Positions 4,987-10,424 of a stretch of DNA of 11,451 bases are shown piece by piece (within the stretch, counting starts at the first letter, position 1; each line of letters opens with the position of its first letter). The stretch lies in the IMG/VR virus record IMGVR_UViG_2690316318_000003. One strand, 5' to 3'. The notes under the pieces are model-generated. The model was not told the origin of the DNA. It worked only from the letters and a program-made list of their open reading frames with translations, and made no database searches. This DNA is from a virus. Taxonomy: Duplodnaviria; Heunggongvirae; Uroviricota; Caudoviricetes. The position numbers and the translations under genes are program-made.

Positions 4987-5340
4987 GTGGCTGATTTCGA
5001 TAACCTGTTCGATGCTGCCATTGCCCGCGCCGATGAAACGATACGCGGGTACATGGGAACGTCAGCCACCATTACATCCGGTGAGCAGTCCGGTGCTGTG
5101 ATACGTGGTGTTTTTGATGACCCTGAAAATATCAGCTATGCCGGGCCGGGCGTGCGTGTTGAAGGCTCCAGCCCGGCCCTGTTTGTCCGGACTGATGATG
5201 TGCTGCAGCTACGGCGCGGCGACACGCTGACCATCGGTGAGGAAAACTTCTGGATAGACCGGATTTCGCCGGATGATGGCGGAAGCTGTCATCTCTGGCT
5301 CGGGCGGGGCGTACCGCCTGCCGTAAACCGTCGCCGCTGA
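4987..5340 (+). CDS. FII: head-tail connector / head completion protein gpFII (117 aa)
   Basis: ORF 4987..5340, GTG start preceded by GGGAGG (4977-4982); 117 aa as in lambda gpFII; sequence MADFDNLFDAAIARADETIRGY... matches my recollection. Confidence 0.87.
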   Translation: MADFDNLFDAAIARADETIRGYMGTSATITSGEQSGAVIRGVFDDPENISYAGPGVRVEGSSPALFVRTDDVLQLRRGDTLTIGEENFWIDRISPDDGGSCHLWLGRGVPPAVNRRR

Positions 5341-5351
5341 AAGGGGGATGT

Positions 5352-5885
5352 ATGGCCATAAAAGGTCTTGAGCAGGCCGTTGAAAACCTCAGCCGTATCA
5401 GCAAAACGGCGGTGCCCGGTGCCTCCGCAATGGCCATTAACCGCGTGGCCACAACGGCAATGAATCAGTCGGCGTCACAGGTTGCCCGTGAGACAAAGGT
5501 GCGGCGAAAACTGGTAAAGGAAAGGGCCAGACTGAAAAAGGCCACGGTCAAAAATCCGCACGTAAAAATCATTGTTAACCGCGGTGATTTACCTGTCATC
5601 AAACTGGGGATACGGATCACCGGAAGTCGTCCCAACAGTACGCTACGGGCCGGTCAGCATCGTTATCAGCGGGCATTTATCCAGCGATTAAAAAATGGTC
5701 GCTGGCATGTCATGCAGCGAGTGGCCGGGAAAAACCGTTACCCCATTGATGTGGTGAAAATCCCGATGGCGGTGCCGCTGACCACGGCGTTTAAACAGAA
5801 TATTGAACGGATACGGCGTGAGCGTCTTCCGAAAGAGCTGGGCTATGCGCTGCAGCATCAGCTGAGGATGGTAATAAAGCGATGA
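5352..5885 (+). CDS. Z: tail completion protein gpZ (177 aa; central segment appears divergent from lambda)
   Basis: ORF 5352..5885, RBS AAGGGGGA upstream; N- and C-terminal thirds read like lambda gpZ (MAIKGLEQAVENLSRISKTAVPG... and ...[62 protein letters not shown]); stop overlaps the U start. Confidence 0.85.
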   Translation: MAIKGLEQAVENLSRISKTAVPGASAMAINRVATTAMNQSASQVARETKVRRKLVKERARLKKATVKNPHVKIIVNRGDLPVIKLGIRITGSRPNSTLRAGQHRYQRAFIQRLKNGRWHVMQRVAGKNRYPIDVVKIPMAVPLTTAFKQNIERIRRERLPKELGYALQHQLRMVIKR

Positions 5886-6277
5886 AACATACTGATATCC
5901 GTGCAGCCGTACTGGATGCACTGGAGAAGTATAACACCGGGGCGACGTTTTTTGATGGTCGCCCCGCTGTTTTTGATGAGGCGGATTTTCCGGCAGTTGC
6001 CGTTTATCTCACCGGCGCTGAATACACGGGCGAAGAGCTGGACAGCGATACCTGGCAGGCAGAGCTGCATATCGAAGTTTTCCTGCCTGCTCAGGTGCCG
6101 GATTCAGAGCTTGATTCGTGGATGGAGTCCCGGATTTATCCGGTGATGAGCGATATCCCGGCACTGTCAGATTTGATCACCAGTATGGTGGCCAGTGGCT
6201 ATGACTACCGGCGCGACGATGATGCGGGCCTGTGGAGTTCAGCCGATCTGACTTATGTCATTACCTATGAAATGTGA
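5882..6277 (+). CDS. U: tail terminator protein gpU (131 aa)
   Basis: ORF 5882..6277; ATG 5882-5884 overlaps Z stop TGA 5883-5885; 131 aa as in lambda gpU. Confidence 0.92.
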
Positions 6278-6284
6278 GGACGAT

Positions 6285-7025
6285 ATGCCTGTACCAAATC
6301 CTACAATGCCGGTGAAAGGTGCCGGGACCACACTGTGGGTTTATAAGGGGAACGGTGACCCTTATGCGAACCCGCTTTCAGACGTTGACTGGTCGCGTCT
6401 GGCTAAAGTTAAAGACCTGACGCCCGGCGAACTGACCGCTGAGTCCTATGACGACAGTTATCTCGATGATGAAGATGCTGACTGGACCGCGACCGGACAG
6501 GGGCAGAAGTCAGCCGGAGATACCAGCTTCACGCTGGCGTGGATGCCTGGAGAGCAGGGGCAGCAGGCGCTGCTGGCGTGGTTTAATGAAGGGGATGTCC
6601 GGGCCTATAAAATCCGCTTCCCGAACGGCACGGTCGATGTGTTTCGTGGCTGGGTCAGCAGTATCGGTAAGGCGGTGACGGCGAAGGAAGTGATCACCCG
6701 TACGGTGAAGGTCACCAATGTGGGCCGTCCGTCAATGGCAGAAGATCGCAGCACTGTGACGGCGGCAACCGGCATGACGGTAACGCCAGCCAGTGCTTCC
6801 GTAGTGAAAGGGCAGAGCACCACGCTGACCGTGGCATTTCAGCCGGAAGGTGCAACCGACAAGAGCTTCCGGGCGGTGTCTGCGGATAAAACAAAAGCCA
6901 CCGTGTCGGTCAGTGGTATGACCATCACCGTGAAGGGTGTTGCTGCAGGTAAGGTCAACATTCCGGTTGTATCCGGTAATGGTGAGTTTGCTGCGGTTGC
7001 AGAAATCAACGTCACCGCCAGTTAA
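6285..7025 (+). CDS. V: major tail tube protein gpV with C-terminal Ig-like (Big_2-type) domain (246 aa)
   Basis: Track ORF 6255..7025; start placed at ATG 6285 preceded by GAGGA (6276-6280), giving 246 aa ([22 protein letters not shown]...); Thr/Val/Ser-rich beta-type C-terminal domain from about nt 6750. Confidence 0.92.
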
Positions 7026-7870: not shown

Positions 7871-10424
7871 ACCGGTAGGCGATCTGGTCGTTGATTTAAG
7901 TCTGGATGCAGCCAGATTTGACGAGCAGATGGCCAGAGTCAGGCGTCATTTTTCCGGTACGGAAAGTGATGCGAAAAAAACAGCGGCAGTTGTTGAGCAG
8001 TCGATGAACCGACAGGCGCTGGCTGCACAGAAAGCTGGTATCTCTGTAGGGCAGTATAAAGCTGCCATGCGTATGCTTCCTGCACAGTTCACCGACGTGG
8101 CCACGCAGCTTGCAGGGGGGCAGAACCCGTTTCTCATCCTGCTGCAACAGGGCGGCCAGGTAAAAGATTCCTTCGGTGGGTTGATCCCCATGTTCAGGGG
8201 GCTTGCCGGTGCAGTCACCCTGCCGATGGTGGGGCTCACTTCGCTGGCAGTTGCCACCGGAGCGCTGGCGTATGCCTGGTATCAGGGGGATTCAACCCTG
8301 TCCAGTTTCAATAAAACGCTGGTCCTTTCCGGTAATCAGGCAGGACTGACGGCAGATCGTATGCTGGCCCTGTCCAGAGCCGGGCAGGCGGCAGGGCTGA
8401 CGTTTAACCAGACCAGCGAGTCACTGACGGCGCTGGTGAATGCCGGTGTGCGTGGTGGTGAGCAGTTTGAGGCGATCAGCCAGAGTGTGGCGCGTTTCTC
8501 CTCTGCATCGGGCGTGGAGGTGGACAAGGTTGCTGAAGCCTTCGGGAAGCTGACCACAGACCCGACGTCGGGGCTGACAGCGATGGCGCGCCAGTTCCAT
8601 AACGTGACAGCGGAGCAGATTGCGTATGTTGCTCAGTTGCAGCGTTCCGGCGATGAAGCCGGGGCATTGCAGGCGGCGAACGAGGCCGCAACGAAAGGGT
8701 TTGATGACCAGACCCGCCGCCTGAAAGATAACATGGGCACGCTGGAGACCTGGGCAGACAAGACAGCACGGGCATTTAAATCCATGTGGGATGCGGTGCT
8801 GGATATTGGTCGTCCTGATACCGTGCAGGAGATGCTGATTAAGGCAGAGGCTGCGTTTAAGAAAGCAGACGACATCTGGAATCTGCGCAAGGATGATTAT
8901 TTTGTTAACGATGAAGCACGGGCGCGTTACTGGGATGATCGTGAAAAGGCCCGTCTTGCGCTTGAAGCCGCCCGAAAGAAGGCTGAACAGCAGAGTCAAC
9001 AGGACAAAAATGCGCAGCAGCAGAGCGATACCGAAGCGTCACGGCTGAAATATACCGAAGAGGCGCAGAAGGCTTACGAACGTCTGCAGACTCCGCTGGA
9101 GAAATATACCGCCCGTCAGGAAGAACTGAACAAGGCACTGAAAGACGGAAAAATCCTGCAGGCAGATTACAACACGCTGATGGCGGCAGCGAAAAAGGAT
9201 TATGAAGCGACGCTGAAAAAGCCAAAGCAGTCCGGCGTGAAGGTGTCTGCAGGCGATCGCCAGGAAGACAGTGCTCATGCTGCCCTGCTGACGCTTCAGG
9301 CAGAACTCCGGACGCTGGAGAAGCATGCCGGAGCGAATGAGAAAATCAGCCAGCAGCGCCGGGATTTGTGGAAGGCGGAGAGTCAGTTCGCTGTACTGGA
9401 GGAAGCGGCACAACGTCGCCAGCTGTCCGCACAGGAGAAATCCCTGCTGGCGCATAAAGACGAGACGCTGGAGTACAAACGCCAGCTGGCGGCACTTGGC
9501 GACAAGGTGACGTATCAGGAGCGTCTGAATGCGCTGGCGCAGCAGGCGGATAAATTCGCACAGCAACAACGGGCAAAACGGGCCGCCATTGATGCGAAAA
9601 GCCGGGGGCTGACAGACCGGCAGGCAGCGCGGGAAGCCACTGAACAGCGCCTGAAGGAACAGTATGGCGATAATACGCTGGCGCTGAATAACGTCCTGTC
9701 AGAACAGAAAAAGACCTGGGCGGCTGAAGACCAGCTTAACGGGAGCTGGATGGCTGGCCTGAAGTCCGGCTGGAGCGAGTGGAAAGAGAGTGCCACGGAC
9801 AGTATGTCGCAGGTTAAAAGTGCTGCCACGCAGACCTTTGATGGTATTGCGCAGAATATGGCGGCGATGCTGACCGGCAGTGAGCAGAACTGGCGCAGCT
9901 TCACCCGTTCCGTGCTGTCCATGATGACAGAAATTCTGCTAAAGCAGGCAATGGTGGGGATTGTCGGGAGTATCGGCAGCGCCATTGGCGGAGCTGTTGG
10001 TGGTGGCGCATCAGCGTCAGGCGGTACAGCCATTCAGGCAGCTGCGGCGAAATTCCATTTTGCGACCGGAGGATTTACGGGGACCGGCGGCAAATATGAG
10101 CCAGCGGGGATTGTTCACCGTGGTGAATTTGTCTTCACGAAGGAGGCAACCAGCCGGATTGGCGTGGGAAATCTCTACCGGCTGATGCGCGGCTATGCCA
10201 CCGGTGGTTATGTCGGTACACCGGGCAGTCTGGCGGACAGCCGGTCGCAGGCGTCCGGGAAGTTTGAGCAGAATAACCATGTGGTGATTAACAACGACGG
10301 TACGAATGGTCTGCCAGGGCCACAGGCGCTGAAGGCTGTTTATGACGTAGCCCGTAAGGCAGCAATGGATGTTGTGACCGGGCAGATGCGCGATGGTGGT
10401 CTGTTCTCCGGAGGTGGGCGATGA
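7863..10424 (+). CDS. H: tail tape measure protein gpH (853 aa)
   Basis: ORF 7863..10424, 853 aa as in lambda gpH; start ATG 7863 overlaps the T-frame stop (7868-7870); hydrophobic segment near the N-terminus, long Ala/Gln/Lys/Glu-rich coiled-coil-like centre, Gly-rich C-terminal part. Confidence 0.93.
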   Translation: MAEPVGDLVVDLSLDAARFDEQMARVRRHFSGTESDAKKTAAVVEQSMNRQALAAQKAGISVGQYKAAMRMLPAQFTDVATQLAGGQNPFLILLQQGGQVKDSFGGLIPMFRGLAGAVTLPMVGLTSLAVATGALAYAWYQGDSTLSSFNKTLVLSGNQAGLTADRMLALSRAGQAAGLTFNQTSESLTALVNAGVRGGEQFEAISQSVARFSSASGVEVDKVAEAFGKLTTDPTSGLTAMARQFHNVTAEQIAYVAQLQRSGDEAGALQAANEAATKGFDDQTRRLKDNMGTLETWADKTARAFKSMWDAVLDIGRPDTVQEMLIKAEAAFKKADDIWNLRKDDYFVNDEARARYWDDREKARLALEAARKKAEQQSQQDKNAQQQSDTEASRLKYTEEAQKAYERLQTPLEKYTARQEELNKALKDGKILQADYNTLMAAAKKDYEATLKKPKQSGVKVSAGDRQEDSAHAALLTLQAELRTLEKHAGANEKISQQRRDLWKAESQFAVLEEAAQRRQLSAQEKSLLAHKDETLEYKRQLAALGDKVTYQERLNALAQQADKFAQQQRAKRAAIDAKSRGLTDRQAAREATEQRLKEQYGDNTLALNNVLSEQKKTWAAEDQLNGSWMAGLKSGWSEWKESATDSMSQVKSAATQTFDGIAQNMAAMLTGSEQNWRSFTRSVLSMMTEILLKQAMVGIVGSIGSAIGGAVGGGASASGGTAIQAAAAKFHFATGGFTGTGGKYEPAGIVHRGEFVFTKEATSRIGVGNLYRLMRGYATGGYVGTPGSLADSRSQASGKFEQNNHVVINNDGTNGLPGPQALKAVYDVARKAAMDVVTGQMRDGGLFSGGGR

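Follow-up and report, generated by a model that had tools for sequence, protein, structure and literature searches.

In an 11,451-nucleotide (nt) stretch of viral DNA (IMG/VR record IMGVR_UViG_2690316318_000003, analysed over its full length and called the window below), it was found that gene Z, encoding the tail completion protein gpZ, departs from gene Z of phage lambda in one sharply bounded central tract. The window Z is very probably a natural alternative tail completion allele that was acquired by recombination, a case of ordinary lambdoid mosaicism. The gene was located as follows:

5352..5885, plus strand: gene Z, tail completion protein, 177 amino acids (aa), assigned from the open reading frame (ORF) list and sequence, the PF06763 match and the lambda-like gene order.

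PF06763 (Minor_tail_Z) matched the protein over its full length (E=2.5e-62; 210.5 bits against a curated cut-off of 23.9), with residues 3-177 aligned to profile positions 1-190 of 190. The gene lies between FII (4987-5340, head-tail joining) and U (5882-6277, tail terminator), and its stop codon overlaps the start codon of U (ATGA). Both the family and this gene position are shared with lambda gpZ. The predicted fold, which combines two long side-by-side helices with a beta-sheet of small size, was also that of PF06763 proteins.

Lambda gpZ of 192 aa (J02459 7977-8555, UniProt P03731) was used as the reference for protein comparison. Residues 1-21 and 113-177 of the window Z were identical to lambda gpZ, and 10 substitutions were found in residues 1-86, all inside 25-74. 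The stretch from IKLG to AFIQ comprised 21 aa in the window (IRITGSRPNSTLRAGQHRYQR) versus 36 aa in lambda (NARVVLSRRRRRKKGQRSSLKGGGSVLVVGNRRIPG); the peptide KLGIRITGSRPNSTLRAGQHRYQRAFIQRL, which corresponds to Z residues 84-113, includes it. The RRRRRKK...LKGGG loop of the lambda segment was absent, the RRRRRKK run being missing altogether, and the window Z was 15 residues shorter overall. By alignment, the short allele had ~7 fewer basic residues than lambda gpZ. Since the 36-aa polybasic segment that marks the lambda-type 192-aa allele was lacking, the window Z was not placed with that type; it grouped with the short-allele proteins of 2B8, PhiR12 and P0001-P0013. The segment was delimited as:

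5610..5672, plus strand: length-variable hairpin segment, residues 87-107, IRITGSRPNSTLRAGQHRYQR (protein alignments and AlphaFold2 models of both alleles).

The original prediction, made from the sequence letters, held that the termini of this Z read like lambda gpZ and that its centre had been replaced or deleted relative to a longer, Arg/Lys-rich lambda centre. The lambda-like termini and the longer, basic centre of lambda were both borne out: lambda gpZ did not have the same 177-aa sequence, and the differences were not spread evenly along the protein. The interval 5607-5675 (residues 86-108) proposed for the change captured the most divergent core, but the whole divergent block extends over 5417-5807 (residues 22-152). 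The wording "replaced or deleted" was roughly right in that the segment is shorter and divergent, although it is still homologous to that of lambda.

The mosaic structure was mapped by comparing three sequences, those of the window, lambda and phage 2B8, at informative sites across 11.4 kb. The resulting parts of Z were:

5412..5416, plus strand: left junction interval (last lambda-type site 5411, first 2B8-type site 5417).
5417..5807, plus strand: probable recombinant patch, short-allele (2B8/RM14723-type) sequence in a lambda-type backbone (informative sites, mismatches and synonymous divergence, dS).
5808..5808, plus strand: right junction (last 2B8-type site 5807, first lambda-type site 5809).
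5809..5885, plus strand: lambda-type 3' end of Z, continuous with lambda-type U (informative sites and mismatch lists).

Within 5417-5807, 72 of the 73 informative sites followed the allele of 2B8 and of a prophage remnant in E. coli (Escherichia coli) RM14723. The sole exception, at 5434, was a change private to 2B8 that was not present in the RM14723 prophage. The 70 consecutive 2B8-type sites at 5447-5807 formed the longest 2B8-type run in the window. Over the patch, the window differed from RM14723 only at 5720 and from 2B8 only at 5434 and 5720. Upstream, the window was lambda-type up to 5411; downstream, the 16 sites from 5809 through U were once more lambda-type. At 5809-5873 it had 2 mismatches to lambda, whereas 2B8 differed at 15 positions; correspondingly, 2B8 and PhiR12_1 end in ...YALKQQLRIAIKR at the Z C-terminus, unlike the lambda-type end of the window. 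The left crossover is preceded by 61 nt (5350-5410) that are identical in both parental types, and the right crossover comes directly after a 71-nt identical stretch. Outside Z, most of the 11.4 kb consisted of short alternating runs of lambda-type and 2B8-type sites.

Nucleotide identity to lambda, calculated per 100 nt, was 97% at 5301-5400 and then 88%, 84%, 60% and 96% in the four following blocks, while most remaining blocks of the window were at 95-99%. The abrupt fall in identity that the original prediction had proposed to look for was thus observed, down to 60% in one block against a 95-99% background. The dS to lambda within Z was 0.48 for aa 22-86 and 1.7 for aa 108-125, and it was 0.11 for aa 126-177; the values for FII, U and E were 0.05-0.16. 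The raised synonymous divergence, together with the sharp edges, indicates from sequence comparison that the patch would be an older allele imported by homologous recombination, and not the product of an in-place deletion or of fast protein evolution. The suggestion of a localised swap at a recombination junction was supported, with two junctions mapped. The most probable course would be that a ~390-nt tract (5417-5807) from a more divergent lambdoid lineage entered by homologous recombination, with crossovers in stretches conserved between the alleles, giving a three-part Z gene with a lambda-type 5' end, a short-allele middle and a lambda-type 3' end.

An origin of the centre from the lambda sequence by a compensated double frameshift was also considered. 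It was rejected, because the nucleotides there are only ~60% identical and because the divergence reaches ~190 nt upstream in the same frame. A separate observation concerned 5649-5772 (Z residues 100-140), which was nearly identical across all E. coli Z alleles compared; PhiR12_1 differed at only 3 of 124 nt there, versus ~20% elsewhere in Z. Nucleotide-level constraint was set aside for this stretch, since distant homologues showed ordinary synonymous change, and a shared recombination tract was the simpler reading.

The short allele was found to be widespread. Among 5426 complete E. coli genomes, 1699 contained short-type central DNA and 3498 contained the lambda-type centre; most short-type copies belonged to the IRML subtype, with ~77-80% identity to the window. 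The Z proteins of 2B8 (YP_009909843.1) and of the RM14723 remnant (WP_001358134.1) are the same 177-aa short allele, 96% identical to the window Z, and their nucleotides are essentially identical to the window over 5417-5807. Annotated copies of this allele type are found in phage 2B8 (NC_049952), in PhiR12 and PhiR5 phages, in Escherichia albertii and in prophages from several E. coli strains, O55:H7 and O26 among them. Lambda_2B8 is one of a group of temperate coliphages that have been cultivated (PMC6969025). The exact window Z protein was indexed in 86 blocks of a public collection, and the same phage was recovered on five independent contigs with 99.2-99.98% nucleotide identity over ~10 kb, which argues that the allele is not an assembly artefact. 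The short allele is thus a circulating lineage and part of a long-standing, common dimorphism in E. coli; public phage and genome records already contain and annotate it, and it is, in that sense, already known.

Several further Z copies were noted in the same survey. The RM14723 prophage (NZ_CP027103.1 2887940-2901473, locus L005) is degraded: its capsid gene is truncated and IS3 interrupts its V gene. Still present in it are FI, FII, Z and U, with the identical short-allele patch, and nleB2 and nleC, which encode type III effectors, lie beside it. P0030 and P0043 (clusters of 750 and 1460 member sequences, respectively) represent a third form of Z that is common in E. coli; it is 191 aa long and has the short hairpin together with 14 residues inserted after HVMQR (LPEARYAKGNDDKGRKKRNRLPIQ). 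Lambda-type Z, apparently from lambda itself, was also observed on short, often low-coverage contigs (loci L013-L022, L025-L031, L062, L077-L082, L087 and L091) from assemblies labelled as Aquabacterium, Kitasatospora, Neobacillus, Shewanella, Pseudomonas, Bradyrhizobium, Paenibacillus and others. Contamination by lambda DNA, or its use as a spike-in, is the most likely cause.

The structures of the two alleles were predicted with AlphaFold2. The model of the window Z (predicted local distance difference test score, pLDDT, of 82) showed a beta region flanked by two long helices (2-48 and 140-176). Its hairpin was predicted to consist of a strand at 87-90, a 6-residue turn at 91-96 (GSRPNS) and strands at 97-100 and 103-106. 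The lambda-type model was made from P0027, which is 99% identical to lambda gpZ (pLDDT 76), and exhibited strands at 88-91 and 112-115 joined by a 20-residue loop (92-111), in which residues 94-109 had a pLDDT below 50. The two models shared the same predicted architecture of long N- and C-terminal helices around a beta-sheet region. In these models, the allelic difference is one of length and charge of a single beta-hairpin loop, with the strands kept; the ~20-residue, disordered and highly basic loop of lambda (SRRRRRKKGQRSSLKGGG) would be exchanged for the turn GSRPNS. When the PDB was searched by sequence with the window Z, no match at E<=0.01 was obtained, and a Foldseek search gave no significant match.

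To place the two alleles, segment length was surveyed in 32 diverse Enterobacterales Z homologues (Erwinia, Rahnella, Kluyvera, Klebsiella, Pantoea, Providencia, Proteus, Morganella, Xenorhabdus and other genera). The hairpin segment was almost always 29 aa long, with the pattern xAxVRLS-RRKxxxxGx-xSVLxIG-xFxFPx. Relative to this state, the window allele has lost 8 residues (21 aa) and lambda has gained 7 (36 aa). Because 29 aa is the usual length in the family, both E. coli alleles appear to be derived, in opposite directions. In the short allele, ~3 residues are missing ahead of the first strand and ~5 from the basic turn, and the 7-residue gain of lambda is in the turn. A distant Z homologue of 196 aa and 43% identity, encoded in a prophage of E. 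coli ECMA0423 (CP178302.1 1825167-1831742, locus L090), carries an independent truncation at the same hairpin (NTTR----RRAGEGLRVG), so that the tip is a length-variable spot across the family.

Three other explanations were weighed against acquisition of a natural allele by recombination. The short centre might have arisen in place in the lambda lineage through in-frame deletions and rapid, possibly positively selected amino acid change, with no recombination. The segment is indeed homologous to that of lambda and differs by in-frame indels, and the family-wide variation in tip length shows that local indels do happen. However, the flanks of the core are also divergent, mostly at synonymous positions and well above the background dS, and both boundaries of the patch are sharp. 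Moreover, the 390-nt tract is virtually identical to Z of 2B8 and of the RM14723 remnant, and the same allele occurs in the PhiR12_1 structural module, which is only 45-75% identical to the window outside Z. An origin in place was thus regarded as very unlikely. It was considered extremely unlikely that the short Z is an artefact of assembly, or a copy that is decaying or defective within a cryptic prophage. RM14723, which has the identical patch, is a degraded prophage, but the Z reading frame of the window is intact with an end-to-end Pfam match, and all 15 structural genes neighbouring Z are intact and of lambda length. The allele is also present in cultivated, plaque-forming phages, and the same sequence was recovered from independent samples.

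The remaining alternative was that the allele is adaptive and co-evolved with a head-proximal tail partner (the tape-measure N-terminus, U, FII, W or the DNA end), so that the loop tunes DNA positioning or ejection. In phage 80alpha, a single copy of the tail completion protein lies inside the neck, where its positively charged face caps the DNA end and its beta-hairpin pairs with three tape-measure N-termini (PMC11661146); the lambda loop is strongly basic with the short allele ~7 basic residues poorer, and in E. coli two alleles have both remained frequent, all of which would be in keeping with such a role. Nevertheless, the partners do not co-vary. Among the window, lambda and 2B8, which include long and short alleles, W was 100% identical, the first 47 residues of H were identical, and U and FII were 95-99% identical, so no sign of partner co-adaptation was seen. 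All combinations of centre type and C-terminus type were found (window, 2B8 and P0056), which fits free recombination rather than linked co-adaptation. An adaptive allele of this kind was therefore judged unlikely, and the earlier proposal of an adaptive change at the tail-tube terminus was left without support, the allele being an old and common polymorphism that occurs beside the same partners. The simplest reading is that the hairpin tip is a tolerant, length-variable surface loop and not a specificity determinant. Two points weigh against the reading as a recombined, functionally ordinary allele. Gap placement in the hairpin is ambiguous, MAFFT having given 10+5 in one alignment and 3+7+5 in another. 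In addition, gpZ has never been resolved structurally in lambda virions (PMC10721106, PMC12617516), so the loss of ~7 positive charges may have a functional effect.

The short-allele Z most likely still performs the normal job of gpZ, since cultivated phages (2B8 and the PhiR12 series) carry this allele type. As for normal gpZ, the protein of the window would be added to the finished tail and would be needed for infectious particles. A more far-reaching interpretation is that the short allele constitutes a natural loop-deletion experiment, in which the polybasic loop is dispensable for tail completion even with lambda-type W, FII, U and H, and that the E. coli-wide dimorphism (short, 29-aa and 36-aa loops), rather than being neutral drift, reflects adjustment of the hold on the DNA end inside the neck or tail lumen, with effects on particle stability or ejection; this was considered rather unlikely. 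What the preferred reading of a recombined allele provides is a finely mapped, clean case of intragenic homologous recombination between lambdoid phages, a well-known process, and a record that the gpZ hairpin tip varies in length, two alleles being common among E. coli prophages. It may also be of practical use: because a natural short-loop allele works beside lambda-identical partner proteins, the disordered polybasic loop can probably be removed in constructs for locating or studying gpZ. Beyond such bookkeeping, the finding is of little importance.

The surroundings of Z were those of a lambda-like prophage structural module (W-L), with ~96% nucleotide identity to phage lambda and phage 434 and the gene order W, B, C/Nu3, D, E, FI, FII, Z, U, V, G, T, H, M, L. 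The window corresponds to contig CYCK01000060.1 in NCBI assembly GCA_001286085.1. Two minus-strand ORFs, at 5465-5635 (56 aa) and 5688-5921 (77 aa), are antisense to the well-supported Z; nothing suggested that they are real genes, and they were set aside. Scanning the entire window against Rfam at gathering thresholds revealed no RNA family and no sign of an embedded RNA element. Elsewhere in the window, 2B8-like rather than lambda-like sequence was observed at 6701-6869 (the 3' part of V, immunoglobulin-like domain; 17 consecutive informative sites) and at 8426-8472 (in H; 18 consecutive informative sites), with 81-86% identity to lambda. The 3' end of H at 10301-10400 exhibited 65% identity to lambda and 93% to phage 434.

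In lambda virions, gpZ has been detected by mass spectrometry, and it has not been resolved in any cryo-electron microscopy map (PMC10721106, PMC12617516, PMC11784142). By analogy with 80alpha, the basic loop of lambda gpZ could face the DNA end. The corresponding protein of 80alpha and SaPI1 of Staphylococcus aureus, gp51 (PDB 9mu2 chain P, 'HK97 gp10 family'), shows an identity of only 14%. The authors of the 80alpha study noted an additional beta domain at the apex of lambda gpZ models (PMC11661146). Relative to 80alpha gp51, it is this extra apex domain of the lambda-family Z that forms the site of the variable hairpin.
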